In this document: one piece after another, positions 7,672-47,940 of the stretch
Layout of the letters: every line of letters starts with the position of its first letter
How positions within the stretch are numbered: position 1 is the stretch's first letter
Virus record (IMG/VR): IMGVR_UViG_3300045902_000324
Span: 33,463-97,462 of that record
Reading direction: 5' to 3' (one strand)
DNA: 64,000 nucleotides
Source: a virus
The notes under the pieces: generated by a model
Seen by the model: the letters and a program-made list of their open reading frames with translations, nothing else
What the model was told of the DNA's origin: nothing
Databases searched by the model: none
Position numbers and translations under genes: made by a program

Positions 7672-7719
7672 ATCAGAATAAATACTAGCGATCGGACTCC
7701 AAGAGGCGATCGCGGTTAA

Positions 7720-8483: not shown

Positions 8484-8485
8484 GG

Positions 8486-9091: not shown

Positions 9092-9093
9092 AG

Positions 9094-14673: not shown

Positions 14674-14987
14674 GGTGCGGGGGACCTTTCAAATTCTGCG
14701 GAGAACCCCCACAGCCCGACGGTTCCGTACCACTGCCAGCGCCATTGCGTGCAGGTATATTGAGCGTTCTGAAAAACAAACCGTCTTCCGTCACGCTCGA
14801 TTAGGAACGCCTGCACTTCCGTATATCGCGTCGTGTTGATTTGCACGAACCAGGTACGATCCGTCCGGTTCACGTCATACAAAACCGGGCGCTGCTGGAT
14901 TCCCTGAACTCGCGCCGATGGCGATCGCACTTTGGTGCGATAGCTGGACTCTCGTGCTATCGATATTGGGAATGTCGGGGGTGGCAT
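14670..14987 (-). CDS. Second minor tail protein M-like gene
   Basis: ~105 aa with EVQAFL..GRRFVF..YTCTQW..FSAEFE pattern, directly upstream of gpL. Confidence 0.7.
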   Translation of the reverse strand: MPPPTFPISIARESSYRTKVRSPSARVQGIQQRPVLYDVNRTDRTWFVQINTTRYTEVQAFLIERDGRRFVFQNAQYTCTQWRWQWYGTVGLWGFSAEFERSPAP

Positions 14988-14993
14988 TGCGTC

Positions 14994-15018
14994 GGGTATG
15001 GTCTTTTGAACCATACCC
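14994..15018. promoter_or_regulatory. Perfect 9-bp inverted repeat GGGTATGGT-N7-ACCATACCC between divergent tail and lysis genes
   Basis: Seen directly; sits in the 39-bp gap between ATG 14987 (-) and ATG 15027 (+). Confidence 0.5.
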
Positions 15019-15026
15019 ACACACAC

Positions 15027-15758: not shown

Positions 15759-15973
15759 TGCACAAGACAATCACCGTCGAATGGATTTTTCACGGACTGG
15801 CGATCGCCATGCTGCTGCGCGGGTTCTTCTCTGGAGCCGACATGATGCAGGAGGCTACCACAGCAGGGGTCATCATCGCGCTAGGTCGAGGATTGCCAAC
15901 CGAAAAGGTTGACCATGTACTCGACAAGTACGACCGTCCAATCTTTCCTAGCGACCCACCGGATGACGCCTGA
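15758..15973 (+). CDS. Putative holin / small membrane protein
   Basis: 71 aa with hydrophobic segments, overlaps the endolysin stop (TGATG). Confidence 0.5.
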   Translation: MHKTITVEWIFHGLAIAMLLRGFFSGADMMQEATTAGVIIALGRGLPTEKVDHVLDKYDRPIFPSDPPDDA

Positions 15974-15975
15974 AT

Positions 15976-16701
15976 CCAATTGGGAGAAATCCATTTTTAA
16001 TTGGGAGAAATGCCAATAGCCAGGCATGACAGACCACACTGTCAGCACGAATGACACACCCAATGACAGCCTAAAACCCTTGCCCACCAAGGGTTGTTTT
16101 TTATCTGTCGAGAGTATCTGTCATGACCTGTCATGGTGCTGTCAGAGCGTGTCAGACAGGCTGGAAGTATTGATATATATAGCGTTTGGCGACCTGTCAT
16201 GACTGTCTCGCAGTTTCACAATAAAGAAACGTGTAAAAAACGGCTGAAACAGGAGGAAAAGGGTTCAAATGTACTATCGCTGAGAGGGTCTGAGGTGCTG
16301 GCGGAAGCATCGGGAAACATAGAGGTGTCCACAGTCAAAAGAAAAGTGGAATGGAAAAGCCTTTCATATATTTCTCTAATTCTCTAGACCCATTTTTGAG
16401 TAGTACATTTGTATTTTTTATCCCTCTTTTAGCCCTCTCAGACACTATTTTTTTATTGCAAATGGGCGAGACAGTCATGACATGTGTCTCAACCCCTTGT
16501 GTGGTAACGGTTGTAGCCTGTCTGACTAGCTCGGACACACCCATGACAGGTCATGACAGATACTTTTTTGGAATAAAAAAGAACCCTTGTATATCAAGGG
16601 TTCTAGCTGTCTCGCTCGTATGATGCGTGGTCTGACGGGTCTGCCTGTCACGCCTCTGTCAGGGCATTTCTCCCAATTAAAATCATATTTCTCCCAATTG
16701 G
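15976..16701. repeat. ~725-bp degenerate inverted repeat with iterated TGACA/TGTCA boxes; candidate replication origin
   Basis: Both arms start CCAATTGGGAGAAAT..TTAATTGGGAGAAATGCC and share the colinear blocks AACCCTTG-N5-CAAGGGTT, AGTATCTGTCATGACCTGTCATGG, GTCAGACAGGCT, TGTCATGACTGTCTCGC and AAATGTACTA. Confidence 0.9.
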
Positions 16702-16703
16702 TT

Positions 16704-17402
16704 TTACTTGTTCCACAGATCTGCCTTTTCCTGTCTGAAGCTGTAAAACGTGTTTGCGCCAACTACGATGTGATCGAGCACTGGCAGATGCATTACCTTT
16801 GCTGCATCTAACATACGTTTTGTCAGTTCCACATCCTGTGGAGACGGGTCAGGGTTGCCAGAAGGGTGATTGTGCGCGATAACGCAGGACGCGCCGTTAG
16901 CCGATATAACAGCCTTAAACACTTGCTGGGGCGTGACAATGCACTCATCAACCGATCCTTGGCTGACTGTTTTTATCGAGATCACGTCGTATTTTGTAGT
17001 CAATACGATAACCACGAGTTTTTCTGTGGTTGCGTGCGCCAGATCGTATTTGAGTAGCGCGTAAATCGATTCTGGGTTGTTGATCCTGATTTTTCCGGGG
17101 CTTGCAAGAAAAACCCGTTTTCCAAATTCTGTAGCAGCAAGTAGCCTAGTGGCCTGAGCGCCCGTTAAGCCCGCTGTGGTCAGCTCGTAGTGGGATGAGT
17201 TGCGGAAGCGTGCCCACGCCTGTTCCTGGTCGAATAACCCAACGTTCAAGCAGATATTTTCGACGACAGAGGTTGCCGTTTCCACAGTGCAGCCAACAAC
17301 GGCTGAAATTAGCTCTGCGATCGCCGTAGCCTGCGGTTCATGTTGGACACGCAAGGTCGTCCACTGGGACTGCGATGAATCTGCGACTCTCCAAAATGAC
17401 AT
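16704..17402 (-). CDS. radC: RadC-family JAB domain protein
   Basis: LAATEFGKR, AHNHPSGNPDPSPQD..LDHIVVG; AGGAG upstream of ATG 17402. Confidence 0.9.
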   Translation of the reverse strand: MSFWRVADSSQSQWTTLRVQHEPQATAIAELISAVVGCTVETATSVVENICLNVGLFDQEQAWARFRNSSHYELTTAGLTGAQATRLLAATEFGKRVFLASPGKIRINNPESIYALLKYDLAHATTEKLVVIVLTTKYDVISIKTVSQGSVDECIVTPQQVFKAVISANGASCVIAHNHPSGNPDPSPQDVELTKRMLDAAKVMHLPVLDHIVVGANTFYSFRQEKADLWNK

Positions 17403-17776: not shown

Positions 17777-18184
17777 TCAAGCTATAGGCGAGTCTTGAGC
17801 CTTAATGTATTCCTTAAGTTTCTCAATTGGCGCTCCACCTGTTGAAGCCACATAGTAAGAGCCTGACCAGAAAGACTGTTTTGTGTACCACTTTGAGAAC
17901 TCTTCAGAAAACTCTTTTTTGACCATGCGGCTAGTTGCCGCCTTGAGAGAACCTGCAACAGCGGCAATCGACTGTTTGGGATGAAAATCGACTAGCAGGT
18001 GAATATGATCCGCTTCTCCAGAACATTCCAACAATTCACAGTCCATCGTTCTACAGACTTGCCAGCACATTTCTCTAATCCGTTCCAGCATTGCAGCAGT
18101 AATTGCTTTGCGCCTGTAATGGGTAACGAATACGAAGTGTAACCGCACACTAAAAACACTGTGTGAACCCTTCCTAGCCTTCAT
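17777..18184 (-). CDS. tnpA: Y1 HUH transposase
   Basis: LHFVFVTHYRR, DHIHLL, FWSGSYYVASTG, YIKAQ. Confidence 0.95.
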   Translation of the reverse strand: MKARKGSHSVFSVRLHFVFVTHYRRKAITAAMLERIREMCWQVCRTMDCELLECSGEADHIHLLVDFHPKQSIAAVAGSLKAATSRMVKKEFSEEFSKWYTKQSFWSGSYYVASTGGAPIEKLKEYIKAQDSPIA

Positions 18185-18218
18185 TGCAAATACCCCACCT
18201 GCAAGATATAATGCTCTT

Positions 18219-19472
18219 ATGATGACACGCAGAGTTACCTTTAGGCTGTATCCATCTGAAGCGCAAACGGCAAAGCTGTTTGAGGCTCGGAGGCTTCACG
18301 CCTATCTCTATAACGCTTGCGTTGAGCATCGTAAAACGAGCTATCAGAAGTTTGGCAAGTCCATCAGCTATTTTGATCAGCAAGCCGCGCTTGTACCGTT
18401 TAAGGCTGATTGGCAGGAGTATAGAGCGCTCAATCATGGCTCATTGCAAGCCACAGTGAAGCGGGTTGATTTTGCCTTCCAGCGCTTTTTCAAAGGACTG
18501 GGTGGGTATCCCAAGTTTCAAGCGATTCGCCGTTACTCTGGCTGGACATACCCTGATGCCCGTCAAGGCTTTAAGGTGCATTCAGACGGCAAGAATGGAT
18601 ACTTGGAATTGCGGGATCTAGGGCTAAAGCTCCAGATGCGAGGGCAAGCGCGAACTTGGGGCGCTCCCACGACTTGCACAATTGTCTATCGTAACGGGCT
18701 ATGGTTTGCCAGCATCACGGTAAATTGCGAGGTTGCGCGCAAAACCGGCAATGGCGCGGTAGGAATCGATTTTGGCGTACTGACGGCTGCGGCATTGTCA
18801 AATGGAACCAAGATCGAAAACCCGCGCTTCATTGCCAAAACGCAAGCCAAGGTTCGCAAAGCAAGCAAGGCAAAGCGTCGCAAGCGCTCACCCAATCTCA
18901 AGCAAAAAGTTAAAGCGTCAAAACGATGGAGGAAAGCGTCTAAGCGGGTATCAAAGCTGCAACGCAAAGTTGCAAATCAGCGGCAGAACTGGGTACATCA
19001 AGTCTCTACACAGATAGTCAGCAGTAATAGCTTGGTAGCGACTGAAAAGTTAAACCTCAAAGGGATGACTCGCAAGGCGAGGAAAGGAAAACGCAAGGCG
19101 CAAAAGTCAGGGCTAAACCGCTCCATTCTGGATGTTGGGATGGGGATGTTGCGCGCTGCGATTGCGTATAAGTTGGCGGAAGCAGGGGGTTTCTTTGTGG
19201 AGGTGCCGACGCTCACGGTTAAGCCTTCTCAGACTTGCCCCAGTTGTGGTCATCAGGAGAAAAAACCACTTGAGCAGCGAGTGCATCATTGCCAGCAATG
19301 CGGTTATGTGGAGGATAGAGATGTGGCGGCTGCTCAAGTCATGCTCAATTGGGCACGGGGTAAGGAACTTGCCTCGTCAAACGTGGATGGGTCTGGCTCT
19401 ACTGACTGCGGAAGCATGAAGCAACTAGCCCAAACGAAGCGTCAGAAACTCCTAGCTCAGCGAAGCGGCTAG
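18219..19472 (+). CDS. tnpB: TnpB RNA-guided nuclease
   Basis: FRLYP, GIDFG, TEKLN, SQTCPSCG..CQQCG..DRDVAAA. Confidence 0.95.
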   Translation: MMTRRVTFRLYPSEAQTAKLFEARRLHAYLYNACVEHRKTSYQKFGKSISYFDQQAALVPFKADWQEYRALNHGSLQATVKRVDFAFQRFFKGLGGYPKFQAIRRYSGWTYPDARQGFKVHSDGKNGYLELRDLGLKLQMRGQARTWGAPTTCTIVYRNGLWFASITVNCEVARKTGNGAVGIDFGVLTAAALSNGTKIENPRFIAKTQAKVRKASKAKRRKRSPNLKQKVKASKRWRKASKRVSKLQRKVANQRQNWVHQVSTQIVSSNSLVATEKLNLKGMTRKARKGKRKAQKSGLNRSILDVGMGMLRAAIAYKLAEAGGFFVEVPTLTVKPSQTCPSCGHQEKKPLEQRVHHCQQCGYVEDRDVAAAQVMLNWARGKELASSNVDGSGSTDCGSMKQLAQTKRQKLLAQRSG

Positions 19473-31258: not shown

Positions 31259-32452
31259 CTAGTCTGAGACGTGGGGAGCATCGATGGTATCGTAAACGGG
31301 ATCGGCGTCTAGTCCGGTATCTTGACCAAACATTTCCACAAGTGGGACAAGTAGACTGTCGATTTTTTCTTCCGCGTCACGAATATATACGACCTCGATC
31401 TTGTGGGTTTCAATCCAGCCAATCAACCGATCAAACTTTTCAGGTGTGTCGGTTCGTTCTGCCAGATCATTCAAAGTTCTCCAGAACGACGTTTCCTCTA
31501 TTACCTGGGGAACGACGACCTGGGCAGCGCGGACATCAATCGGGCGATCGCGTTCAGGCTGCAACTGTGGAACCGCCATTGGCGCAGACCCCGTAAGCGC
31601 TGCCGCCTGCTGAACCCGCTGAGCCAACCCAAGGCGCTGTTGGCTCTGAATAATCATGGAAACGCTGGCGTAGTAGTCCGGGTCAAACTCAACAAAGATG
31701 TTGTGGTCTATTCTCGTGCTCCGTTCGCCCGTAATTACCATGCCGCCGCCATCACCCTTGATTCGCTTCCGCTGAGAGTTCGCTTGCTCTCGCCGCGAGA
31801 CGACAATCGGAATCCCCTGGAGAGACACAAAGAAATCTGGACATAGCTGGTTGACGCGCCGTATCGTCTCTCCGATCTGCATGAACGATCTGCCAATAGT
31901 CTGCACGTCGAACCACGCCCCGCTGTGTATCTTATAGATCAGCGGTTGATTCATCTCCGGGATTTCAACGTAGAACTCGACTTGAAGCCGAGCGCCACAT
32001 TCAGGCTTTTCAGCAGGGTGCTTCCCTTCCATGCAGCACTTGATCGGGCACCCTGTGGCATCTGTTGGATTGAACACCATGAACTGACCAGCGTGTTCTC
32101 GTGTCTGGAGCACATGTCTACCGTCGCACAATCGATTCAGCGACCCCTTGCCACCCTTTTTATCTGTTCCGTATAGCTTGAACGATGTTTCAAAGATTCT
32201 GTCAGCTTCATCGAAGGGCAGAATCGCCCTAAACGACTTCGGCTCCGGGCCAAACGCATCTGTCCACAGATCTGCCAGATGCTCGTATCCGTCTGCTGGA
32301 TGCAGTCGAAAGTAGTCACGGTCTTTGGGCATTTTGCGGCCGGCCGCTTCGGCTTCTTCTTTACTCTCACCTTTTTTAATCGTCGCGCCAATCGGAGGGC
32401 GCGGCGGGCCCTGCCGCTCTAGAAATTCTGTAACTTGTGCTAAATGGGGCAT
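31259..32452 (-). CDS. Gp3-like / recombination-directionality-factor-like protein
   Basis: GATIKKG..PKDRDYFRL N-terminus, CDG and Cys cluster, LQGIPIVVSR. Confidence 0.6.
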   Translation of the reverse strand: MPHLAQVTEFLERQGPPRPPIGATIKKGESKEEAEAAGRKMPKDRDYFRLHPADGYEHLADLWTDAFGPEPKSFRAILPFDEADRIFETSFKLYGTDKKGGKGSLNRLCDGRHVLQTREHAGQFMVFNPTDATGCPIKCCMEGKHPAEKPECGARLQVEFYVEIPEMNQPLIYKIHSGAWFDVQTIGRSFMQIGETIRRVNQLCPDFFVSLQGIPIVVSRREQANSQRKRIKGDGGGMVITGERSTRIDHNIFVEFDPDYYASVSMIIQSQQRLGLAQRVQQAAALTGSAPMAVPQLQPERDRPIDVRAAQVVVPQVIEETSFWRTLNDLAERTDTPEKFDRLIGWIETHKIEVVYIRDAEEKIDSLLVPLVEMFGQDTGLDADPVYDTIDAPHVSD

Positions 32453-33391: not shown

Positions 33392-34080
33392 CTGATCTGG
33401 ATGCAATGATCCGGTGAGATGCCGCTGGCACCCCTCCGAGCGTAGTAATCCATCCACACCAGCCAGGGCACGTTCCCGACCAGATCTAGCCAGGAATTGT
33501 GCGGAGTACTCCCCATCCGCAGGCATCGAAACGCCAATACCCTCATAATCCGGGTGGCGTAGAAGTTCTGCCCTACAAACAGTTCTTGCGCCTGCCGCGT
33601 GGACTGGAGATTCACTGCAAAGCAGTGTTGCAGATCTATTGAGCAGTAGTTGACCAGCTTTCCTTGCACAAATCTACTCTTGACAGGCTTGCGGGATCGC
33701 CATGCCACAAATACTAGGTGCGACGAGTGGCGCAGGGTGCCGCGCTGTTTTGCGATTTCCTGCCTCGCCTTCACCTCGAACGCCCTGCGCCATGGATGGG
33801 AATCGCCAGTAGTCCCGGCTGTCGCTCGAAACTGGGCCAGGTTGACGCACAGCAGAAGCAAGTCTCGATCAGCAGTTTGCTCCACACATTCCCACAAGCA
33901 GACTAGCCCTGGAAACACATCGGGCTGATCGAACAATAGCCGTAACCCGCACCCGCTGTGGCTGTAACTTTCTACTGGCTTTTCAAGGGGTTGCCCGTCC
34001 TGCCGGAGTCCAACAACTCCGCGCAGCCAGTCCACCAGTCTCGATATCACATCTTGCATCGGAGATAGTGCCCCGAACAA
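33376..34080 (-). CDS. Hypothetical protein (true start probably near 33990)
   Basis: Long ORF continuing the operon; the 5' part overlaps the upstream gene. Confidence 0.45.
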   Translation of the reverse strand: MFGALSPMQDVISRLVDWLRGVVGLRQDGQPLEKPVESYSHSGCGLRLLFDQPDVFPGLVCLWECVEQTADRDLLLLCVNLAQFRATAGTTGDSHPWRRAFEVKARQEIAKQRGTLRHSSHLVFVAWRSRKPVKSRFVQGKLVNYCSIDLQHCFAVNLQSTRQAQELFVGQNFYATRIMRVLAFRCLRMGSTPHNSWLDLVGNVPWLVWMDYYARRGASGISPDHCIQISQNTQ

Positions 34081-34453
34081 TCAGACCGAAAACAGCCAAA
34101 GCACCCGCAATCAATAGCCCGTGTGTGACTGCATCTTGAATGCTGAGCAGCACGCTCGGCGTCTCTTTTCTATAGTTCAACGGAGGAGAATACCGATCAA
34201 TGGCGATCGCCTCTTCGTGCTTTCGTCGCCGCTCGTTCAGATAGACTTTGTACCGGATATGCGTGACGCCATTTCTCTTCAGTTCGTCTGTCTTGTGGTG
34301 CGGGCCGTAGCCACTGTTGTCTGTCCAGCGCCGCCGCAAGTTGGAGGATTCGCCCACATATAGTAGGCGGAAACGACTGTAGCAGTAATAGACTCCGGGC
34401 TGAGCGGGTAACGTGTGACGATGTTTCCATGCAACCTGTTTAGTGGACATCAA
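33983..34453 (-). CDS. GIY-YIG nuclease domain with C-terminal hydrophobic segment
   Basis: LPAQPGVY..LLYVGESSNLRRRW..E..PPLN followed by LLIAGALAVFGLIV. Confidence 0.85.
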   Translation of the reverse strand: MMSTKQVAWKHRHTLPAQPGVYYCYSRFRLLYVGESSNLRRRWTDNSGYGPHHKTDELKRNGVTHIRYKVYLNERRRKHEEAIAIDRYSPPLNYRKETPSVLLSIQDAVTHGLLIAGALAVFGLIVRGTISDARCDIETGGLAARSCWTPAGRATP

Positions 34454-35718
34454 ATTTTTTTATCCTGACACTGAGCTGATTTCTCTGGGTCGATTGTTCC
34501 GAACGTCTGGTCGCCCGATATCCCCGGAATAGCCGTTATGGGGTCTATAACTAATCCAGAGGTATCTGTTATCTCGAAATGTGAGTGCGGGCCAGACGAG
34601 TTGCCAGTGCTTCCCATCCGAGCGATCGCATCACCCTGGTCTACGGTGTCACCGACCTTCACCAGGTTCTCGGAGTTGTGTCCGTACAGTGACTTGGTGC
34701 CGTCAGCGTGCTTAAGAATCACCTTATTCCCAAGTCCATCGCCCACATCGCCCGAACTGATCACTGTGCCGGACTTCGCTGCCAGGATAGGCATACCGAC
34801 CGGGCCAGCCATGTCTATGCCGTAATGACACATTCTAAACTTGGGATCTTGATGGTCACGCCAACCAAACCCGCTAGTGAATATGGCACCTGGGACTGGG
34901 TTGATCCACCCGCCTCCGCCACTGCTCTTACCTGATGTTGTCGGCTTCTTCAGCGCCAACACCTTGTCGATCGCATCCATGCGCCGCTGCTGGTCTTGCT
35001 CAATCGTGATGCCGTTTTTGGTGATGCCTGGTGCATCGCCCTGGTAGCTTTCGACGCGGGCGCAAAGGATATCCCCCTTGCACTGCTTCAGGTACTTAGC
35101 GAAATCTGCTCCCGCCGCTGGCGATTGATTCAGTAAGTCTGCGGCATTCAGCCACACTTTAGGATCGTTAGGCAGCTCAGGAGCTATCGAATCAAGCTGA
35201 CCGCGCAGCCGCGTCAGTTGCTTTTGGTCTGCCGCCTCCGGAGAGGCAGCACCATGCTGATAAGAGAACGTCCCCATATTGGTAACGCCGTTGCCGGGGT
35301 CGGCATGGCTGCCATAGGCGCTGGTCTTGCCGCCGTCTGGGGTGCGAGTCCCCTCAGCATTGCCGACAGCGATCGCCACAAGCGAATCAGCCCCACCTTC
35401 AAACATCTGATCGATGCTGGTGGGCGCTGCTCCGGTATCAAGCTCCTGATCAGCCAGCTCTGCATCCGCCAGAGCACTAGCCGCCAGCGCATCAGGAACA
35501 GACAGCTTCGGTACTCCTGGCACTGCGTTATACGTCTGGATCATCCTGATCGCAACCAGCGACACCTTGTGTGGGGCTGTCAGGATCAGGATGAACGCGA
35601 TTGTCAGCGCCCCCATCTGGGCATACCAACCAAGCGGCGGGCGTTGCATCTCCTTCAGATCTTCAGGAGTGACCCGCCCTGTTACGTTGTAGGTCATGAC
35701 TTTTCTCGGCTTTGACAT
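34450..35718 (-). CDS. Membrane-anchored M23 peptidase with central lysozyme-like domain
   Basis: N-terminal TM; AEGTRT..DPGNG..GTFSYQH; HYGIDM, YGHN, STGNSSGPHSHFE. Confidence 0.88.
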   Translation of the reverse strand: MSKPRKVMTYNVTGRVTPEDLKEMQRPPLGWYAQMGALTIAFILILTAPHKVSLVAIRMIQTYNAVPGVPKLSVPDALAASALADAELADQELDTGAAPTSIDQMFEGGADSLVAIAVGNAEGTRTPDGGKTSAYGSHADPGNGVTNMGTFSYQHGAASPEAADQKQLTRLRGQLDSIAPELPNDPKVWLNAADLLNQSPAAGADFAKYLKQCKGDILCARVESYQGDAPGITKNGITIEQDQQRRMDAIDKVLALKKPTTSGKSSGGGGWINPVPGAIFTSGFGWRDHQDPKFRMCHYGIDMAGPVGMPILAAKSGTVISSGDVGDGLGNKVILKHADGTKSLYGHNSENLVKVGDTVDQGDAIARMGSTGNSSGPHSHFEITDTSGLVIDPITAIPGISGDQTFGTIDPEKSAQCQDKKI

Positions 35719-35851
35719 TGACTGTGGATGATGACTATCTACGGGCGCTGTCGCACGATCGCAGCGTTCATAAATACAGCTATGTATTCTTCAATCGTTT
35801 TCTGTTGGCGTTTCTGTGCCCAGCGCCGGGGGCGTACTTCTTTCATAATGT

Positions 35852-37075
35852 CTAAGGGGTTTCTGGTTCTGTCGTTGATTGCGGTTCAGGAGTTTGCTCC
35901 GGCTCCGGCGGTGCCTCATTTTCTGTGGGCACTCGTGCATCACCGGGTAACGGTTTTGCCACAGCGCCCGGTGTCTTGATTTTCAGGAATCTTTCGATCA
36001 GGTTGATTGTTGGCGGCGTGTACTCTCGATCGCCTTGCCAGTCCTGCCCGTCAATCTTGGCAACTTCGACATGAGCGTGCGGGCCAGTAGACGTACCTGC
36101 CTCCGGCGTTCCGTTGTCTGCGCCAGTGGTGCCTAGCAAAGTGCCGGGTTTCACCTCGCCATCTGGCACGTCAATCGTCTTCATGTGGCACACCTGCACC
36201 ATGTGCCCGCCTTCTTTCGGGAGCAGCAGCAAGACTTGTCCACATCCTCCTGTCTCAGCCGGGGTGCGAGTCTTTGCAGTGCCCGCAAATGGCATGAAAA
36301 TTTGAAAGCTTCCGCCGATGTCCACACCGTTGTGCATTGACGGCTGACCCGTCACAGGGTGCGTTCCCCGAAATCGCATGGTGTCCGTCACCTTCAACAC
36401 ACCTTGAGGCGAGTTGAAATCGATCAGCGACTCAACGCGAGTACCTTTGAAAGGATCGCCCGTGAATCCATCCGCAATGACATCGACTATGGCGTTCGAC
36501 GTATCGACTGGCACTGTGGCAATCCCCTGCACCAGCGGATACAGTACGCGCAGCCACAACGTCAGAATGACGATCGCCATCAGCATGTGCCGCATCAGCA
36601 CAAACTTTGACATGTAGCGCTTTTTGTTGACGAGCGCTTCAACCAACGTCTCCACCCAGGCGACAGACTCTTGCAACGGAGCCTGCACTTGAGCTAGATG
36701 TGCCGCCATGCGCGACTCTATATCGTTAGCGACTCCTTCAAGGTAGTCACCTCGCCCAGCCAAACGCTTTTTCTCAAAGTGCTGACGAATAGATTGTTGT
36801 CGCGCTTTACGACGAGCCTCTTTAGCCGCAGCAGCACTTGTCTCTTCAGCAAACGTTTCCATGTCTATCCAGTCGAAGCCCACAGACTCCGCCTGGTAGT
36901 CGTCAGTGTACCAGTTGGCAGGATACTCCTCTGCTACAACTTCAGCGTCACGAACGTCTTCTGGCGCATCATCGATCTCGCGGAAATCGGTGACACGTCT
37001 TGACGTATCTTTTGGTGCGGGCGTTACTGGCTCGAACGTTACGTCCTGAATGTCTGGGGGCTTAACTTTTGGCAT
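35852..37075 (-). CDS. Membrane-anchored M23 peptidase
   Basis: Acidic N-terminus, TM, HPVTG..HNGVDI, STGPHAHVE. Confidence 0.85.
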   Translation of the reverse strand: MPKVKPPDIQDVTFEPVTPAPKDTSRRVTDFREIDDAPEDVRDAEVVAEEYPANWYTDDYQAESVGFDWIDMETFAEETSAAAAKEARRKARQQSIRQHFEKKRLAGRGDYLEGVANDIESRMAAHLAQVQAPLQESVAWVETLVEALVNKKRYMSKFVLMRHMLMAIVILTLWLRVLYPLVQGIATVPVDTSNAIVDVIADGFTGDPFKGTRVESLIDFNSPQGVLKVTDTMRFRGTHPVTGQPSMHNGVDIGGSFQIFMPFAGTAKTRTPAETGGCGQVLLLLPKEGGHMVQVCHMKTIDVPDGEVKPGTLLGTTGADNGTPEAGTSTGPHAHVEVAKIDGQDWQGDREYTPPTINLIERFLKIKTPGAVAKPLPGDARVPTENEAPPEPEQTPEPQSTTEPETP

Positions 37076-37156
37076 GATTATACGCGGGGCTGCTTTACAT
37101 ATCGTCTATCATCTACCTTAACTTTGTCAAGCGTAATCCGTTGAAAATATGTTGGT

Positions 37157-37762
37157 TTAGTTGAAAAACTCGAAGGACAATGACCCGTTTTCTGCCTTAA
37201 CGTCTACAATCCCAAAGCCGTCGTCCACCAGAAAACGCCACCAGTTCGCCCCAAAAATACAGTTCGGCTCACCAAGCGCCGACTGCGCTTCGATCAAGTC
37301 AGCCATCCTAAGCTGCCCGCTCTCCCACAGGTCTTTAAGCTTGGATACTTTTGCTAGAGATACTCTGGACTCGGCATTCTGAACAGAACTCTGTGGGCAG
37401 GCCAGCAGCCTGTTATCTACAGCGGGGGACATCTGCTCTGCGGTTGTCGTTTGCTCTGGTGGCACCGGGGCTGGCACATCCTCGCCCTGATAGCGGGCAA
37501 TCGCACCACTCGCCTCTCCTGCCACTTTGCCACCAAACTCACCTAGCGCTTCATGGGCGGGTTTTGAGTTTTCATAATCGAAATCCTTCCCGTCAGCCGC
37601 CTGCACACCACTCTTTCCAATGGCAAGCAAAAACTTAAACGTTGGGGCGAGGTTGAACTTGCCGGGTGCCTGCGTCAACTCTCCTCCTACCCACCCTGCT
37701 ACGCCGATCAGAATGGCGATCGTCATGGCACCCACAAACCAATCATGTACTCGTCCTAACAT
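37157..37762 (-). CDS. Hypothetical membrane-anchored protein
   Basis: N-terminal TM; GAGAG RBS upstream. Confidence 0.7.
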   Translation of the reverse strand: MLGRVHDWFVGAMTIAILIGVAGWVGGELTQAPGKFNLAPTFKFLLAIGKSGVQAADGKDFDYENSKPAHEALGEFGGKVAGEASGAIARYQGEDVPAPVPPEQTTTAEQMSPAVDNRLLACPQSSVQNAESRVSLAKVSKLKDLWESGQLRMADLIEAQSALGEPNCIFGANWWRFLVDDGFGIVDVKAENGSLSFEFFN

Positions 37763-37816
37763 CTCTCACCTCTGTGGAAATCGAGTGGGCTGAAGACAGC
37801 CCATTTACTGTACGGC

Positions 37817-38182
37817 TTACGGCAGCGGAGCGGGATCGACTGGTGCTGGGAATAGCATGGGAGGCGCAACAATTGTGGCACCTGGCGGCTGAGCCTCCGG
37901 CAGCGGTGTTCCATCAGCGTTGGCAGCACCATCAAAGTTCGACGGGAGCAGGTTCAGCATCCGATGCACGAAGCATCCGATACTGCGGGCGTAGGAATCC
38001 TCGTTCAGGAAGTTGTGAGCGACCTGGCAGTTCCTACCCTGAACGCCCATCGCGGTATAGGTGATGATGCCACCGCCGGCCAACACCAGCAACGCGCAGA
38101 AGACACCTGCTGGTGTAAATCCGACGTTATCCCATAGGAAGTTGAAAACGTCACTGAATCCTACATTCTTGTTGTCGCGCAT
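37817..38182 (-). CDS. Hypothetical membrane protein
   Basis: One TM, Cys pair, Pro-rich tail; AAGGAG upstream. Confidence 0.7.
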   Translation of the reverse strand: MRDNKNVGFSDVFNFLWDNVGFTPAGVFCALLVLAGGGIITYTAMGVQGRNCQVAHNFLNEDSYARSIGCFVHRMLNLLPSNFDGAANADGTPLPEAQPPGATIVAPPMLFPAPVDPAPLP

Positions 38183-38215
38183 CGATCTCTCTCCTTAGAT
38201 TTACAACTTTGAAAC

Positions 38216-39793
38216 TTACGCAGCCCAGGCTTGCTGAGTGTGCGTACGAGCGGTCATGTATGCTGCATCGCCGGGGGCAACGTCGAAGATCACCCGGATT
38301 GCCTTGTCTTGATGTAGCCCGTTGGACTGACACCAGGACAAGCGATCGCGCAGCACACCAAGGTCAAACGGTCGGTCAGGCGATAGCACAGACCATGTGG
38401 ACACTTCAGCCAGTTGCTCAGGGGTCAGCCCACGCAGCTTGGCTGCACGCTCCGGTGATAGCGTTACCGCTGGTGCTGCGACTGGAGCAGTGGCAACGGG
38501 ATCCGTCATCAACCCGGCTTTCTTTGCCAGCGTCAACGCCCTCTCGTTCTCGGAGCCAAACACTCCGATTTCTGGGTGAGCGTTTTTCAACGCCCACATC
38601 TTGCCGAACACGGCACCCATCTGCTTCGGCGTGATGTCTAGCGCTGTTGGAATCAGACCAACTGTGTCTGGTTGCAAGAAGAAGACACCCTCTGGGCGAC
38701 GGCTGTCTTCCAGCAAGTCTTCCAACAGTTCAGCAGTCTCTTCTGTGGCCGCCATCCACCCATTGCCGCGCAGCGTGTCTAGTGCGGTCTTGCCTTGAAC
38801 CCAGAACGTGAGAGCGGAACGGGCAGGGGCATCCTTGACGTAGAGCGCTTCCACAGTTGGGCTGGTCGCCCCGATCACTGAACCGACTTTTAGGCTGTGC
38901 CCAGACACGGCGATCGCGTTGAGAACCGTATCCATAGCAGCGGCTTCCTGCTTGTTCAACACGCTGCTTAGCTTGACAGCGGAATAGTCTTCGATGACTA
39001 ACCATAGTTCTGGCTGCTCACCCAGTTCCGCCACGCTCATCTGGTGTCGAGCCTTTAACACATCACCCACCAGCTTTACAGCAGACGCGACTGACGCATG
39101 TGGACGGACTACGCCGGGGACGCGCTGCAACAGTGATTCTCGCTGGCTGATGAGGATTGGGATAGCGCGGTCTGCGATCGCCGTTGTGAGGGCAGAAATG
39201 ACGCCGTTGCGGACATCGCGCTCACCGAGCACAACCACACCGCTAGGTTTTTCCGTCGCTTCCTCGAATGCGCCATAGATCGTTGCTACATCATCGATAC
39301 CGGAGTTCTCTACTACGTCATCCATCGGACTGGCGACATAGCTTGAGTACGATGCTTCAAAATTCGAGATCGGCGGCTGCGTGTACGTGACTGGCTGAGG
39401 ATCTGTGTCAAGTGACGCAAGCGCAGCATCCTGAGAAACTACCGGGGCCTGTTGTCTGACCACGATTGGGGCAGGCGTCTGCACTGGGACTACAGTGTCT
39501 TCTTCTTCCTCATCGAATACCTGACTCGTAGAAAAGTCAAGCGCTATACGCACAGTAGCACCAACTGCCATCAGCGAAACCAACGTCATCAACCACCACA
39601 GAGGGGTTCGCTTTGCGTAGACCTCGAAGCCCTGCACGGGCTGCCCCGCTTCGTTGGTGCGCGTGGACTGGCGAATCTGAGCATCGGAGTACAGGGTGGC
39701 TCCGTAGAGCAGGAGCAGGGATGATGCGCTCAGTGCTGCGGCCTGTAACATCTCGTCTAGCGACCAAGTTTTCTTGACGTTTAATTCGATCAT
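38216..39793 (-). CDS. Two-TM protein with degenerate FtsK/HerA/coupling-protein-like P-loop domain
   Basis: Two N-terminal TMs; Walker-B-like LWLVIEDY followed by IAVSGHSLKVGSVIG (GR..GV-like motif); no intact Walker A. Confidence 0.5.
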   Translation of the reverse strand: MIELNVKKTWSLDEMLQAAALSASSLLLLYGATLYSDAQIRQSTRTNEAGQPVQGFEVYAKRTPLWWLMTLVSLMAVGATVRIALDFSTSQVFDEEEEDTVVPVQTPAPIVVRQQAPVVSQDAALASLDTDPQPVTYTQPPISNFEASYSSYVASPMDDVVENSGIDDVATIYGAFEEATEKPSGVVVLGERDVRNGVISALTTAIADRAIPILISQRESLLQRVPGVVRPHASVASAVKLVGDVLKARHQMSVAELGEQPELWLVIEDYSAVKLSSVLNKQEAAAMDTVLNAIAVSGHSLKVGSVIGATSPTVEALYVKDAPARSALTFWVQGKTALDTLRGNGWMAATEETAELLEDLLEDSRRPEGVFFLQPDTVGLIPTALDITPKQMGAVFGKMWALKNAHPEIGVFGSENERALTLAKKAGLMTDPVATAPVAAPAVTLSPERAAKLRGLTPEQLAEVSTWSVLSPDRPFDLGVLRDRLSWCQSNGLHQDKAIRVIFDVAPGDAAYMTARTHTQQAWAA

Positions 39794-40566
39794 TGGGCAC
39801 CCCCTGGCGCTCGGTTTACCAATTTCTGTGCAGCCTGCACTGTTGCTGCGAGACTAGCATTATATGCGTCGCTTTGGACTTGCCCGGTGCGGGCTTTCGG
39901 CGTACGTGTGGACGATGCGTTCGACCAATCCTGCAAAGCAGCCAGTACATCCAAGAAATTTCCTTCCGCAGCCCGAAACCGACTTGCGGTGTCTGCGTCA
40001 ACCCGAATCGCTTCTACCGTGGGCAGAGAAATCTGAACTTCGACTGGAGCACCCTGGTTAGCGGCCTCTACCTTATTCTGATACTCCGCCATCGTTGTCG
40101 CGTTCGGCTGCATCTGATACTTGGTGCTTGACTGGATAGCGACAGACCATGCGGTCAACTGCTCCATCAGGTAATGCCCCTCGGTTGGGTACAGATTTGA
40201 GTTCATGCGTGATTCTTCGCGGGCACGATCCAGCCACAGCTCGACCCGTCCTGTACGTACGTGCTGACCGATCAGTGCGGACTGAGTGCGGAAGTATCCG
40301 GCTGCACCAACAAACGTGGTGAACGCCTCCTGGTCTGCTGAGGCTTCAAGCGCGGCTGGCGTTTCACTTGCCGTTTTGTCAGTCGCCGCAGGCTGCAATA
40401 ACTGAGCCGCCTGAACAAACTCGCGCTTCTCGTGAACGAATAGGAATCCGGTGACTCCGCGCACCAGCAGCATAAACGTAACCAACCCACCGCCCAGGGC
40501 AGCCACAAACAGCAACCTCTGTAGGTGCTTTGCTCTGGGCTTTTCTTCAACGTTCGCATTAATCAT
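39790..40566 (-). CDS. Hypothetical membrane-anchored protein
   Basis: N-terminal TM; overlaps both neighbours. Confidence 0.7.
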   Translation of the reverse strand: MINANVEEKPRAKHLQRLLFVAALGGGLVTFMLLVRGVTGFLFVHEKREFVQAAQLLQPAATDKTASETPAALEASADQEAFTTFVGAAGYFRTQSALIGQHVRTGRVELWLDRAREESRMNSNLYPTEGHYLMEQLTAWSVAIQSSTKYQMQPNATTMAEYQNKVEAANQGAPVEVQISLPTVEAIRVDADTASRFRAAEGNFLDVLAALQDWSNASSTRTPKARTGQVQSDAYNASLAATVQAAQKLVNRAPGGAQ

Positions 40567-40864
40567 CGACCTTCTCCCTCAACTGATAAAGGGCTACTAA
40601 TCCTGCTTGATCTTGTGACTTGGAGTATTCCGCCTCCAACAGTCTGAACTTATCCTCAAAGACTCTGTGGGCGGCGGACGCTTGCTCCTTTCGTGCGATC
40701 GCCGTGGTTGCTGCGCCTGCTGCCGCCCCTGCCGCTGCCCCAGTGCCGACCAGTACGAACCGTAGCGTGCTCTGAAACTGTGACTGCAATCCTAACTGGA
40801 GGCAGGCTACGAAGCTTAGGAACCCAACCACACCGCCCGCCGCCATTCCCACAATCGTCTTCAT
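40559..40864 (-). CDS. Small two-TM protein
   Basis: Gly/Ala-rich hydrophobic helices; ATGA coupling. Confidence 0.7.
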   Translation of the reverse strand: MKTIVGMAAGGVVGFLSFVACLQLGLQSQFQSTLRFVLVGTGAAAGAAAGAATTAIARKEQASAAHRVFEDKFRLLEAEYSKSQDQAGLVALYQLREKVDD

Positions 40865-41052
40865 CTCGCATTTCCTCTCTGCGTCATCAATCCAACAGCG
40901 CCGCCAGCAATCAACCCGAACATGAATGCAGCAGACCGAGCACTATCAATCTGACTCTCTTTGACCTGATTGCTTTTGTTGGTGGACACAGACACTATCA
41001 ATGCGGAAATGACTATTAAAAAACCCAGTGCAGTGCCTACTAAAAATTTCAT
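40861..41052 (-). CDS. Small two-TM protein
   Basis: Two hydrophobic helices; ATGA coupling. Confidence 0.7.
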   Translation of the reverse strand: MKFLVGTALGFLIVISALIVSVSTNKSNQVKESQIDSARSAAFMFGLIAGGAVGLMTQRGNAR

Positions 41053-41366
41053 TCCCAGTCCTCCAGGGCAACGCCTTTAAGCACGCTATCCACAGATACA
41101 ATCGGGGCTGTGAAAACTTCCTCAACGATATCACCCGGTTCTTCTGTCTGGGGGGCAACCCTATTAGCCGCCTGCACTCTGCTCTTTGCTGCTGCGATCG
41201 CTGCGGGCAACGTAGCGTTCAGATGTCCCATCAGAGCGTGGTTGTGGGGCACTTGAAACCCGCGCTCTCTAGATAGGATTTTTACGTACTCGTCTAGCAA
41301 TCGCTTTACATCGGGGCTGGTAATACGATACCGAGCCAGAATTGTTTCGTTACTACCAGCCATCAC
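41049..41366 (-). CDS. Putative ParR-like partition adaptor
   Basis: Small ORF directly downstream of the ParM-like gene; acidic C-terminal tail. Confidence 0.45.
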   Translation of the reverse strand: MMAGSNETILARYRITSPDVKRLLDEYVKILSRERGFQVPHNHALMGHLNATLPAAIAAAKSRVQAANRVAPQTEEPGDIVEEVFTAPIVSVDSVLKGVALEDWE

Positions 41367-42530
41367 CTATACCAACGCAAAGTACGGAACTTGACGCGCT
41401 CTCCCGGAAAGTTCGACCTCTTTCACGGGTAGTCCTACCTGGACTAAAAACGCTTCGTCCATCAGCCGAGCAGCCCCCTTAACGTTTGCTGTCTCCGGTT
41501 CATCCAGTGACACAAAGTTGAACCCTGTCTGGTTGAGCGCGGCGATCGCAGGGGCGAAATAATGGGAGCCACCGCCTAGCGTGAGCGTCCTGGCTCTCTC
41601 GCTACCCCAGTCAGCAGCAACTTCTGAATAAAGCGATGCGACCTGCATTGCCCAGTTACGCCGTGCTTTGGCTACAAACTCATCGAAGTGGATCGGGACA
41701 TCAGCGTTCGCTGAGCCATAAACGTATCGAGTACCCTTGGTAGCTTTTGTGGACTTCATGCCGTTTAGCAACCCGTCCAAAATCAGACCCGTGTCGAATG
41801 TTCCGCCTGGGAACATGCCAGCAGCTTTCATTTGCTGTCCGATTGCTTTGCCCAGGCTGTGAACGCCACCACGGGGTGAGTTGATTCGGGCACCTGGCAG
41901 CGGGCCACGGGAACCGACCACAGCGGTGATTGCGCTCAGACCGCCGATGTCCAAGTACGCATTCTTTTCTTTGGGGTTCATCACGCCCAAGCCGACTGCT
42001 TCGTAGTAGCCTGCCAGTCCTTCTGGCATCAGCACCAGCGAGTCCGGGCGAATCAGCACGTCCAGGCTGATCCCGTTGCGAACAACGTAGTGATGTCCAG
42101 TTAGCGCGGACTGGTAAGCCTTCAAAACTTCAGCGCTTGGGTCTGGGTGGAGAACCACCATCTCAACTACTTCGTAAGAAGTCGTCGAATCCATGTCAAG
42201 CATTCCAAGCGTGAAGAACAAGGCGCTACTGATTTTTCCAGCGCCGTTGCTGGTGTCGAGTTTGAACACTGGCAAGCGGGAATCAAAATCGTATGCACCC
42301 TCGCCAACCACAACGGTCTGCCCACCCCATAGCGTCTCTGATGGGCCGCCAGTGATATCCAAGTATGCCGAGGCTGGGGCGATCGCCACATGTGGAACCT
42401 CATAGCCAGGAAAGGCTACGAGCGAGTGAAACACGCGCTCAAGCACTTCACCAGTAGACATGTTATCAACGCGAACCAGAGTGCTTCTATTCCCAAAATC
42501 ACAGATGACTTTAATTTTTTCAGGCACCAC
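41367..42530 (-). CDS. parM: Actin-like plasmid segregation ATPase (ParM/StbA family)
   Basis: ICDFGNRST, MPEG, YLDIGG, LGGGS, ANVKG actin-fold motifs; AAGGAG 9 nt before GTG 42530. Confidence 0.85.
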   Translation of the reverse strand: MVPEKIKVICDFGNRSTLVRVDNMSTGEVLERVFHSLVAFPGYEVPHVAIAPASAYLDITGGPSETLWGGQTVVVGEGAYDFDSRLPVFKLDTSNGAGKISSALFFTLGMLDMDSTTSYEVVEMVVLHPDPSAEVLKAYQSALTGHHYVVRNGISLDVLIRPDSLVLMPEGLAGYYEAVGLGVMNPKEKNAYLDIGGLSAITAVVGSRGPLPGARINSPRGGVHSLGKAIGQQMKAAGMFPGGTFDTGLILDGLLNGMKSTKATKGTRYVYGSANADVPIHFDEFVAKARRNWAMQVASLYSEVAADWGSERARTLTLGGGSHYFAPAIAALNQTGFNFVSLDEPETANVKGAARLMDEAFLVQVGLPVKEVELSGRARQVPYFALV

Positions 42531-42552
42531 TGTGCTTTTCTCCTTAAAATTT

Positions 42553-42593
42553 TTGTCTGGTTCCAGGTGTGTCTTGTCCGGTTCCAGGTGTCT
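42553..42593. repeat. Tandem direct repeat TTGTCYGGTTCCAGGTGT (21-bp period); parC/operator candidate
   Basis: Two copies between the promoter (42600-42628, TTGACA-N17-TACGAC) and the parM RBS. Confidence 0.6.
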
Positions 42594-42672
42594 TACATAG
42601 TCGTAACGCTTTATCGTTAGTTTGTCAAGCGTTTCTCTATAAATAGTGAAAATCTGTGGGCTTTTCTGCTTT

Positions 42673-46197: not shown

Positions 46198-47487
46198 CTA
46201 CGCAACGGGCTGAAGCCGCGTTGCTCCGCTTTTCCCTTGAGCTGTCACCCACAACTTAATGCGGGTGGGGGCAGTCAATGACCCCCTACCAACTCCGCTC
46301 AGACTAAATCCAAGCATCGTCGCTACTTTACGCAGGATGTTGGCAGCGCCATTACAATCCGCGTTGATGTACCAGTTCTGGGCAGTCCTGAACAAGCCTC
46401 GCTTCGTCCGCTTCCCCGATGACTTCCAGCTATCAGGTTTTTCACCGAATGTCGGCAAAAAGTCACCATCCACAAACGATGCTTGAGAGGTATAAGACTC
46501 CTCAGTTTCAACAAACTCTATCCCGTACTGCTCCGCCAGTTGAGCAATCCGCTCTTTTAGCCTTGCAGTTGGGATCTGCACAAACTTCTGATTGGTCTTC
46601 TTGCCCAGGTTGGAGCCGTCCTTTTGCCGCTGGTTCCAGCCAAATACAATCCGACCAATCCGGTTATCAATGCAATGGTCAATCACAATCCTAGCCGCTT
46701 TGTTCACTGCATCACGTATCTGCCGATTGCGCTTCTCAGTGAGTTGTGCAAGCCGCTTTGACCAAAAGCCTTGAGCCTTACCTTCTCTCAGTTTGGCAAT
46801 TTGCTTGTTGTACCAGCGGTTCAACGATTTGAGGTGGAGTCCATCCACAATGAAGCTGGTTCCCACGGTACTGACGCAGGTGAGCCAGTTATTTAATCCC
46901 GAATCGATGCCCAGCACCCGCATCGGGTCTACATCAGTCTGGATGGGGTTCAGTCGATAGACAAACTCAGTGTAGAAACACCCATTGCGCGGCAGAATCC
47001 GCAGTTCCTTGATGTCCTCAAATTTGAGATTGGAGGGCATGGGGACAGTGAACGAATCAATCTGAAACCATACTTTCACTAACTGCCCCAGCGGAACCCG
47101 GATCATCCCATCAATCAGCTTCAGCGCTTGTTTGGGATAGCTGACTACTGCCAACCCTCCCTTCTTGCGGTAATTTGGCATCCTGGGTTTCTCCGCCAGT
47201 TCTCCACCTCGCCACAGTTTCAACAATGCTCGGTAGGACTTAAACGACTCGTAGACCGAAATCAAGGTTTGCTGTGCAGCCTGGGAGTAAAGAGCTTGGA
47301 AGTGCTTACTGGTCTTGTATTCGTAACTCAGGCTGTGTTTGCCAATCCACTGCCCAGTCTTAAAGTGCAGTTGGCGAGCATAGTAGATGCCCTGATTGGT
47401 TAGCTTGTTTGCCTCAGAGCAGACAAAATCCATCACCCCCTTAAGTTCGTTATTGGGGTTGAGCAAAACTTGCTGACATCCAAACAT
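46198..47487 (-). CDS. tnpB: TnpB (IVFGWN/EESYTS subtype)
   Basis: GIDSGLNN, IVFGWN, EESYTS, NADCNGAANI. Confidence 0.93.
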   Translation of the reverse strand: MFGCQQVLLNPNNELKGVMDFVCSEANKLTNQGIYYARQLHFKTGQWIGKHSLSYEYKTSKHFQALYSQAAQQTLISVYESFKSYRALLKLWRGGELAEKPRMPNYRKKGGLAVVSYPKQALKLIDGMIRVPLGQLVKVWFQIDSFTVPMPSNLKFEDIKELRILPRNGCFYTEFVYRLNPIQTDVDPMRVLGIDSGLNNWLTCVSTVGTSFIVDGLHLKSLNRWYNKQIAKLREGKAQGFWSKRLAQLTEKRNRQIRDAVNKAARIVIDHCIDNRIGRIVFGWNQRQKDGSNLGKKTNQKFVQIPTARLKERIAQLAEQYGIEFVETEESYTSQASFVDGDFLPTFGEKPDSWKSSGKRTKRGLFRTAQNWYINADCNGAANILRKVATMLGFSLSGVGRGSLTAPTRIKLWVTAQGKSGATRLQPVA

Positions 47488-47544
47488 GGTGAGTTTATGC
47501 AACAATTGTCTACAGCATAGCCCAGATAGACAAACAGGTGAACT

Positions 47545-47940
47545 ATGGACTGCCAGAAAAGCCGCAGTGCAACGCATTTGCTGAACTATCACTTTGTCTG
47601 GATTCCTCGGCGACGCAGACCTGTTTTACGAGGAGAAATAGCAAATCGGTGCAGGCAGTTGATATGGGAAGCAGCAGAGGAGATTGATTGTCAAGTTGTG
47701 TCGTTGGCAATTGAGCCGGATCATGTCCACCTCTTTGTTAACTGCCCTCCAACAATTGCGCCCTATCAAATCATCCATCGAATTAAGGGGCGAACTGCAC
47801 GGTTCCTCAGACAGGAATTTCCTAATCCATTAATGAAACTGCCATCCATGTGGACATCCAGTTACTTTGTCTCAACGGCTGGCAATGTTAGCAGTGAAAC
47901 AATTCAGCGCTACATTGAAGCTCAGGGCAAGAGTAATTGA
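47545..47940 (+). CDS. tnpA: Y1 HUH transposase
   Basis: YHFVWIPRRR, PDHVHLF, WTSSYFVSTAG, YIEAQ. Confidence 0.95.
   Translation: MDCQKSRSATHLLNYHFVWIPRRRRPVLRGEIANRCRQLIWEAAEEIDCQVVSLAIEPDHVHLFVNCPPTIAPYQIIHRIKGRTARFLRQEFPNPLMKLPSMWTSSYFVSTAGNVSSETIQRYIEAQGKSN

Follow-up and report, generated by a model that had tools for sequence, protein, structure and literature searches.

A plasmid-type membrane operon headed by a ParM-like gene in a tailed cyanophage: possible borrowed DNA-transfer machinery

Why would a tailed phage carry, amid its replication genes, a long run of membrane proteins headed by a plasmid-type partition pair? The question is raised by an operon in a stretch of 64,000 nucleotides (the window, bases 33463–97462) of the 97,462-bp IMG/VR virus record IMGVR_UViG_3300045902_000324. 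The operon consists of eleven tightly packed minus-strand genes running from 42530 down to 33983 (Table 1). Their products are a ParM-like actin-fold ATPase, a candidate ParR-like adaptor, several small membrane proteins, a membrane-anchored FtsK/TcpA-type protein of 525 residues, two membrane-anchored M23 peptidases and a GIY-YIG-like protein. The genes form a module of plasmid type that a tailed cyanophage has captured or shares: its ATPase family and its types of hydrolase are found again, in the same order, both in other cyanophages and on plasmids of filamentous cyanobacteria. The module looks like borrowed cell-to-cell DNA-transfer machinery. In the reading that we favour, to which we assign a probability of about 0.4, its products would form a membrane complex that handles the DNA of the element at the cell envelope, with ParM and ParR delivering that DNA.

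The operon and its FtsK/TcpA-type protein

The layout of the block supports its being one operon. ATGA overlaps join the ParR-like gene to tm63, tm63 to tm101 and tm258 to cp525 (the genes for the 63-, 101-, 258- and 525-residue proteins), the tm101/tm258 overlap is ATGATTAA, the overlap between the genes of the 422-residue hydrolase and the GIY-YIG-like protein is TTGA, and the remaining intergenic gaps measure 0–133 nt. An initial annotation, made from the letters and the translated open reading frames (ORFs), listed genes all of which exist on the minus strand. The ATGA overlaps that it described are found from ParR into the small membrane genes and at tm258/cp525, but the other junctions are of the kinds just given. 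Its upper boundary, position 42628, has to be corrected: it falls out of frame, on the first T of a TTGACA box, and the likely start of ParM is the GTG at 42530, 9 nt after AAGGAG. A hydrophobic segment of transmembrane strength is found in nine consecutive operon products. Elsewhere in the 97-kb record such segments occur in 13 of 119 ORFs, in runs of two at most, and the membrane block is therefore not explained by chance. The 258-residue protein matches nothing in Pfam, PHROG or NCBIfam, and an Atlas search with it returns nothing above chance.

The 525-residue protein has a hydrophobic segment at residues 65–85 and a weaker one near residues 17–38, a layout similar to that of its relatives, in which the membrane segments precede the motor domain. 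Its most unusual part is the Walker A site. Where the family has PPGTGK[TS], alignment A3 gives G-E-R and a six-residue gap, and a regular-expression search finds no GxxxxGK[ST] in the protein. A Walker-B-like LVIEDY and later motifs are kept. With the Walker A lysine absent, the protein therefore cannot hydrolyse ATP in the usual way.

The family to which this protein belongs is sparsely represented in sequence collections. Among 1.8 billion representatives the protein has a single match, P0002 (E = 3e-5), and, queried with this protein or with alignment A3, word-indexed protein searches return nothing beyond the query itself. Tblastn of the protein and of an intact relative, P0008, gives no match in the phage collection, and no locus was confirmed when viral, genome and metagenome contigs were scanned with the ATPase or ParM. 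Members of the family (P0002–P0008) combine a P-loop domain, in which PPGTGKT is intact, with membrane segments at the N terminus and an acidic linker. A hidden Markov model (HMM) built from plasmid and P000x sequences, with the phage protein left out, finds the 525-residue protein at E = 6e-17. The family is named by no Pfam or NCBIfam model, and the relatives match generic AAA models only.

AlphaFold models of the 525-residue protein and of P0008 are poor overall (pLDDT 42 and 43, respectively), and of the latter the P-loop domain alone is usable. This domain is most similar to TcpA of pCW3 (Z 13.2, 215 residues aligned, rmsd 3.5), followed by EccC (12.3) and FtsK (12.3); Rho, DndH, VirB4, HerA and TrwB score lower. 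Foldseek with P0008 agrees with the ranking of TcpA, EccC and FtsK folds. As modelled, P0008 would thus have a RecA-like ASCE fold nearest to the FtsK-type motors. The poor model of the 525-residue protein itself ranks the same TcpA/EccC/FtsK set first (Z 5.9), and its Atlas language-model features point in the same fold direction (0.94). The earlier description of this protein as FtsK- or coupling-like and lacking an intact Walker A motif is right by fold and by family, with the Pfam profile left unmatched. The only part of the protein that is confidently modelled is a small helical domain formed by its C-terminal 60–75 residues (38216–38440). It faintly resembles the helix-turn-helix DNA-binding domains of KorB and Spo0J (Z 4.3–4.8) and is a possible DNA-recognition module.

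The fold ranking also brings up a type VII-style protein exporter, composed of an EccC/EssC-like membrane ATPase and small membrane partners, since EccC and EssC domains are among the best folds of P0008 (Z 12.0–12.3). TcpA and FtsK score equally well or better, however, and the ATPase family sits on plasmid backbones beside replication and partition genes. Furthermore, there is one P-loop domain and not three, and no WXG-type substrates are recognised. An exporter is highly improbable. The lost Walker A motif and the lack of close relatives of the 525-residue protein would also suit a degenerating relic of a captured plasmid module that has no present function in the phage. Yet all eleven frames are intact and still translationally coupled, the M23 catalytic residues and the actin motifs are kept, and relatives persist in at least two other phage lineages, which makes decay a highly improbable account of the operon.

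Relatives on plasmids and in other cyanophages

A tblastn search with P0008 finds the ATPase family on 26 plasmids, all cyanobacterial (Nostoc 19, Leptolyngbya 2, Oscillatoria 2, Tolypothrix 2 and Microchaete 1), and every one of the 26 comes from a filamentous organism. Some of the plasmid genes carry the NCBI label type IV coupling-type protein. A replication protein common on cyanobacterial plasmids served as the query of a control search of the same collection, in which about one third of the comparable plasmids come from unicellular genera; the unicellular Acaryochloris (21), Synechococcus (18), Picosynechococcus (9) and Synechocystis (7) are among its ten commonest genera. A concentration of homologues in unicellular hosts, which the initial annotation had named as a result that would tell against its reading, is thus not seen among these plasmids. 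The restriction of the family to filamentous hosts is suggestive, although the matches are phylogenetically clumped.

The order of genes on plasmid1 of Leptolyngbya boryana is close to that in the phage: an ATPase, a membrane protein, a membrane-anchored M23 peptidase and a membrane-anchored middle-domain protein. The M23 peptidase matches the phage 407-residue protein (E = 3e-15) and the middle-domain protein matches the phage 422-residue protein (E = 7e-31). The L. boryana M23 gene beside the ATPase, present in two near-identical records, is the sole match of the 407-residue protein among 72,556 plasmids. The middle domain of the 422-residue protein has plasmid matches only in Leptolyngbya, Kovacikia and Calothrix, all of them filamentous cyanobacteria. 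The accessory membrane proteins of the plasmid modules barely match one another.

A partition gene heads the module on part of these plasmids. On Nostoc punctiforme pNPUN04 and Nostoc pTCL26-01_C, ParM/StbA stands at the head of small, partly membrane-bound proteins that run into the ATPase, and pTCL26-01_C has a separate ParAB besides this ParM-headed operon. On eight Nostoc plasmids, cross-reading of coordinates places ParM 3.6–4.3 kb upstream of the ATPase on the same strand, and the ParM-to-ATPase arrangement is found on at least nine Nostoc plasmids. Plasmids of Leptolyngbya and Oscillatoria, and some of Nostoc, have the module without ParM. As a separate observation, pTCL26-01_C of Nostoc sp. 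TCL26-01 carries, downstream of ParAB, eleven tandem copies of a 156-bp ORF with a 211-bp period (L009 14195–16460), which encode 51 residues each in two protein variants.

Other phages carry the module as well. In the 40.6-kb contig IMGVR_UViG_3300044956_001016 (L018), which has head, SSB and RusA-type phage genes, two membrane proteins are followed by a 445-residue member of the ATPase family in which the motifs GEPGDGKT and VIDEF are intact. Behind it come a 63-residue membrane protein, a hydrolase and a 122-residue protein with a C-terminal membrane segment (6277–11262 for the module). The hydrolase is 42% identical to the phage 422-residue protein, whose middle domain also matches this contig. 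The partition gene of L018 is of the ParA type, not the ParM type, and lies 5 kb away (16106–16705). Among viral structures, P0008 is matched best by an uncharacterised protein of Nodularia phage vB_NspS-kac65v161. In this phage gp140, a 712-residue protein with a membrane segment and an intact Walker A motif, is found by the family HMM (E = 1e-32) and comes after a run of fifteen small ORFs, several of which encode membrane proteins and all of which are annotated as hypothetical (gp124–gp140, L023 1332–9464). The phage is in culture and offers a ready experimental system with an intact member of the ATPase family.

A cluster of wall-enzyme genes is found in Microcoleus phage My-WqHQDG (L019 5506–11147), where five of them adjoin baseplate genes. 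They encode a beta-lactamase-family protein, an amidase, a match to the middle domain of the 422-residue protein, an LD-endopeptidase and an M23 peptidase. The record of this phage contains no ATPase of the cp525 family.

Partition pair, wall peptidases and other readings of the operon

The ParM-like protein matches the PHROG 691 partition protein (E = 6.5e-5) and keeps the actin motifs DFGNRS, DIGGLS and GGG. A profile of this protein and three cyanobacterial relatives (A4) matches the solved R1 ParM at 6e-5 and CorM at 2.7e-3, and the protein is 30% identical to ParM of the Kovacikia minuta megaplasmid pA. No Pfam or NCBIfam model matches it. Its actin motifs and its similarity to solved ParM structures place it in the ParM/StbA family, as the gene's first assignment had it. 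The 105-residue product of the next gene finds no family in a Pfam search. A predicted complex of the two proteins scores 0.45 against 0.00 for the best control and weakly supports their pairing. Of 78 solved complexes, 51 reached the mark, as did 2 of 108 mismatches; it was reached with a score of 0.60 or below by only 5 of the 78 solved complexes and by all 4 mismatches that passed. The prediction runs have at least 38% of contacts in common, with a partner pLDDT of at least 61. The pass may reflect memory on the part of the model, since ParM–ParR complexes have already been solved.

Two 18-nt direct repeats lie between the TTGACA box (42623–42628) and the ribosome-binding site of ParM. Only these 2 copies match the repeat in the window, where chance alone would give 0.08, and they are a plausible candidate for the ParR site. 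No convincing -10 box was found.

A partition pair of this kind could simply be the ordinary ParMRC cassette of a plasmid-prophage, standing beside unrelated membrane genes for entry or superinfection exclusion and forming no joint machine with them. The closest ParM relative, that of Kovacikia pA, is indeed a stand-alone gene with a 110-residue partner and no membrane genes; there are the plasmid modules, listed above, that do without ParM; and a search of the 97-kb record for tyrosine and serine recombinases finds no integrase, which fits plasmid maintenance. Nevertheless, the ParR-like gene is translationally coupled straight into the membrane genes, and the ParM-to-ATPase order recurs among the Nostoc plasmids, one of which has ParAB besides. 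We consider a partition cassette with chance neighbours distinctly unlikely.

The life style of the phage has to be judged from its genes. The record is that of a siphovirus-type phage, with a large terminase, head genes and lambda-like tail genes (J, I, K, L and M equivalents and a tape measure protein with an M23 domain), and it contains a long minus-strand replication block with DNA polymerase A, a DUF3987 primase-helicase, helicases, a sliding clamp and sigma factors. It is rated linear and 84% complete, and genes may lie outside it. The DNA polymerase is closest to the polymerases of Nodularia siphophages, at an identity of only 26%, and the G+C content is 50–56%; the host is probably a filamentous cyanobacterium. 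The lack of an integrase and the presence of ParMR fit either a strictly lytic life style or that of a plasmid-prophage, and not integration. By genes alone, virion genes, a ParMR cassette and no integration module found mark this as a putative phage-plasmid, and the initial suggestion of one fits the plasmid origin of the module. The DUF3987 replication protein shows no similarity at E <= 0.1 to the plasmid DUF5906, DUF3854 and CyRepA1 proteins. A 397-residue protein with a Gp3-like 'recombination directionality factor' domain (31259–32452, minus strand) is encoded in this genome, in which no integrase was detected.

An actin-like pair may also serve the cell envelope. In Anabaena, a chromosomal ParMR pair became a membrane-bound, shape-controlling cytoskeleton (bioRxiv 10.1101/2025.06.27.661541), and the match of profile A4 to CorM allows that a CorMR-like pair positions the wall hydrolases here and so alters the shape or the septa of the host cells. 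Solved plasmid ParM proteins outscore CorM, though, the 105-residue partner has no obvious N-terminal amphipathic helix when its sequence is read by eye, and the upstream direct repeats fit a DNA-binding ParR. Such a host-reshaping cytoskeleton is quite improbable.

Both M23 peptidases are membrane-anchored, as first annotated, and both keep the HxxxD and HxH motifs (zinc and catalytic residues). The 407-residue protein consists of an acidic N-terminal domain of about 150 residues, a membrane segment at residues 155–182 and an M23 domain, which scores 25.2 bits with the Pfam M23 model, just below the cut-off of 28.7; its membership of the family is given by motifs and profile together. The 422-residue hydrolase has an N-terminal membrane anchor, a middle domain without a family and an M23 domain that is well above the same cut-off (99.2 bits). 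No solved relative of the middle domain is found by sequence.

With both M23 domains catalytically intact by motif and with matches to PHROG endolysin families, the operon might be an auxiliary lysis or wall-remodelling kit, in which the M23 peptidases and holin-like partners act late in infection and the ATPase-like protein is a regulator or a relic. Planktothrix phage PaV-LD provides a precedent: bacteriolytic activity is shown by its M23 endopeptidase with a membrane segment (ORF123) and by the holin next to it (ORF124), and depends on the membrane segments (PMC9096620). Like PaV-LD, which is also a phage of a filamentous cyanobacterium, the phage studied here has an M23 peptidase with a membrane segment beside small membrane proteins, a likeness drawn by description only. 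Unlike the ORF123/ORF124 case, it has a separate canonical lysis pair on the plus strand at 14841–15973, where an endolysin with a peptidoglycan-binding domain and a Peptidase_M15_3 domain (E = 3e-22) is directly followed by a 71-residue, holin-like membrane protein. The two M23 enzymes are therefore not the sole lysis enzymes, and the operon was rejected as the main lysis cassette. Moreover, the ATPase-plus-hydrolase order is also found on plasmids, which do not lyse cells, and the operon sits among replication genes, not late genes. An auxiliary role in lysis is unlikely.

The last product of the operon had been called a nuclease of the GIY-YIG type with a transmembrane tail. The tail is present, but the nuclease call is weak. 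A pattern GVYY...LYVG...R...E is visible, UvrC N-domain models stay below threshold (E = 4e-4 to 1e-3), and there is no Pfam match.

Table 1. Features of the operon and of the region upstream of it, with the basis of each assignment
Feature	Position	Strand	Basis
Two 18-nt direct repeats ACACCTGGAACCRGACAA, 21-nt period	42553..42591	-	Candidate ParR operator/centromere
ParM-like actin-fold ATPase, ~387 aa, GTG start	41367..42530	-	PHROG, profile, motifs
ParR-like adaptor candidate, 105 aa, acidic C-terminus	41049..41366	-	Position (abuts ParM) and size
63-aa protein, one membrane segment	40861..41052	-	ATGA overlap on both sides
101-aa protein, N-terminal membrane segment	40559..40864	-	Hydrophobicity
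258-aa bitopic membrane protein, no family	39790..40566	-	Hydrophobicity
Membrane-anchored FtsK/TcpA-type P-loop protein, 525 aa	38216..39793	-	Family HMM, alignment, fold
121-aa bitopic membrane protein	37817..38182	-	Hydrophobicity
201-aa protein, N-terminal membrane anchor	37157..37762	-	Hydrophobicity
407-aa M23 endopeptidase	35852..37075	-	M23 profile, motifs HNGVD and HAH
422-aa hydrolase	34450..35718	-	M23 domain HYGID, HSH; Pfam E = 1.6e-28
GIY-YIG-like protein, 156 aa, C-terminal membrane segment 108-126	33983..34453	-	Weak family call

A possible route for element DNA and its precedents

In the favoured reading of a membrane complex that handles element DNA, the operon products would assemble at the cytoplasmic membrane, open the peptidoglycan locally, and hold or pass the DNA at the envelope. 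ParM filaments, bound via ParR to the 18-nt repeats, would bring the DNA to this complex. Filamentous cyanobacteria have a continuous outer membrane that is common to the cells of a filament, and passage between sister cells therefore crosses only two cytoplasmic membranes and the septal wall. In such a filament the envelope site would be the septum between sister cells. The working mode may be akin to TraB/Spd spreading in Streptomyces or to TcpA-type transfer in Gram-positive bacteria. Because its Walker A motif is lost, the phage copy of the 525-residue protein would probably be a scaffold or receptor, or the partner of an intact paralogue from a resident plasmid. A bolder proposal, which we regard as rather doubtful, is that a machine without relaxase and VirB4, common to phages and plasmids of filamentous cyanobacteria, passes double-stranded DNA of the element through the septum into neighbouring cells and lets the phage genome spread along a filament without virions. 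Its parts, suggested with the same reserve, would be the FtsK/TcpA-type membrane protein, bitopic membrane proteins and anchored wall hydrolases, joined in some lineages by a ParM filament.

Several points weigh against a role in DNA transfer. The loss of Walker A argues that the phage ATPase copy is not itself a motor as it stands. Pfam FtsK_SpoIIIE (PF01580) finds no match in the 525-residue protein or in the six-frame translated record at E <= 1. ParM stands at the head of the operon on only about half of the plasmids examined, and the partition link may be mere backbone synteny. The small phage membrane proteins have no detectable relatives, even among the proteins of the plasmid modules. 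No transfer origin was found, and VirB4 (PF03135), Relaxase (PF03432) and Mob_Pre (PF01076) have no match in the 97-kb record, other relaxase families having been left unsearched. Finally, we infer the host and its morphology, and the function of the plasmid module likewise.

These searches extend to the whole record what the initial annotation had said of the window, that it lacks relaxase and VirB4, and no ORF of VirB4 size is left unexplained. A canonical secretion system of type IV (T4SS) to account for the genes is not present within the 97 kb of this 84% complete record. The proposal of a spreading module or a reduced conjugation system keeps the support of a single operon, a degenerate FtsK/TcpA protein, the lack of T4SS and relaxase, and relatives in filamentous organisms, and is weakened by the phage ATPase without Walker A.

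TcpA and Orf21 of Tn916 are FtsK-like coupling proteins of Gram-positive (MPF_FA) conjugation, in which wall hydrolases anchored in the membrane are their partners. The best fold match of P0008 is TcpA of Clostridium perfringens pCW3, and the layout of N-terminal membrane segments and then one FtsK-type P-loop domain is common to both sides. Membrane-anchored peptidoglycan hydrolases in transfer operons are a trait of monoderm systems (PMC4027160), and the phage operon resembles these systems in having them. It differs from the TcpA/Orf21 systems in that it has no recognisable VirB4/TcpF, VirB6-like or VirB8-like protein, no relaxase and no Pfam FtsK_SpoIIIE match; the host is a diderm cyanobacterium, and the phage copy is without Walker A. 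The MPF_C system of pCC7120alpha (PMC4027160) is similar in being mobile-element machinery in the same host phylum, but it is defined around VirB4, which the module lacks. Since, in addition, the ATPase family profile finds nothing on pCC7120alpha, membership of MPF_C was rejected.

Streptomyces TraB and Spd proteins carry DNA across to a sister compartment (pSVH1; PMC4447253). Their system and the phage module have in common an FtsK-like protein, several small membrane or wall-binding proteins, no T4SS, no relaxase, a multicellular filamentous host and, as proposed here, a role in the spread of an element between compartments. Unlike in Streptomyces, no sequence relation to Spd proteins was found and no clt-type repeat array was identified, none having been sought beyond the ParM repeats. 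TraB needs its ATPase, whereas the phage 525-residue protein has lost the ATPase motif. Wall hydrolases and a ParM head belong to the phage module and are not part of the Streptomyces system.

Literature searches found no published description of the cyanobacterial module. The published proposal that comes closest concerns the 'DNA translocation operon' of Bacillus phage 0305phi8-36 and its relatives, which was shown to be dispensable under laboratory conditions and was suggested to act in the wild, possibly by moving DNA between cells (PMC3357382). That phage, too, is a lytic-type tailed phage with a translocase, membrane anchors and an actin-like protein (PMC3357382). Its operon, however, starts with a relaxase-like gene and is found in Bacillus phages, and the two are likened by description only. 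The head of the present operon resembles R1 ParMRC and Anabaena CorMR in its actin-fold motifs, small downstream partner and upstream direct repeats. It has two repeats where R1 parC has ten, it is translationally coupled to membrane genes, and its 105-residue partner matches no ParR family.

About 88% of cyanobacterial plasmids are judged immobile under the current conjugation model (PMC8600333). The ATPase-plus-hydrolase module, conserved on many cyanobacterial plasmids, shared with cyanophages and seen so far in filamentous hosts only, offers a specific candidate for a route, as yet unrecognised, by which DNA moves in multicellular bacteria, and it bears on the possible travel of phage genomes along a filament. 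As the family occurs in cultured Nodularia phages and on Nostoc punctiforme plasmids, the idea is open to genetics. The twists of the present window are the coupling of a ParMR head to membrane genes and an ATPase without its nucleotide loop.

Away from the operon, the window contains an IS200/IS605-type element (17777–19472), made up of a Y1 transposase (17777–18184, minus strand) and a TnpB-like gene (18219–19472, plus strand). A second TnpB/OrfB_IS605 gene lies within the replication block (46198–47592). Upstream of the window, the phage encodes a GGDEF diguanylate cyclase with a membrane-sensor-like N-terminus (L003 2939–3793).

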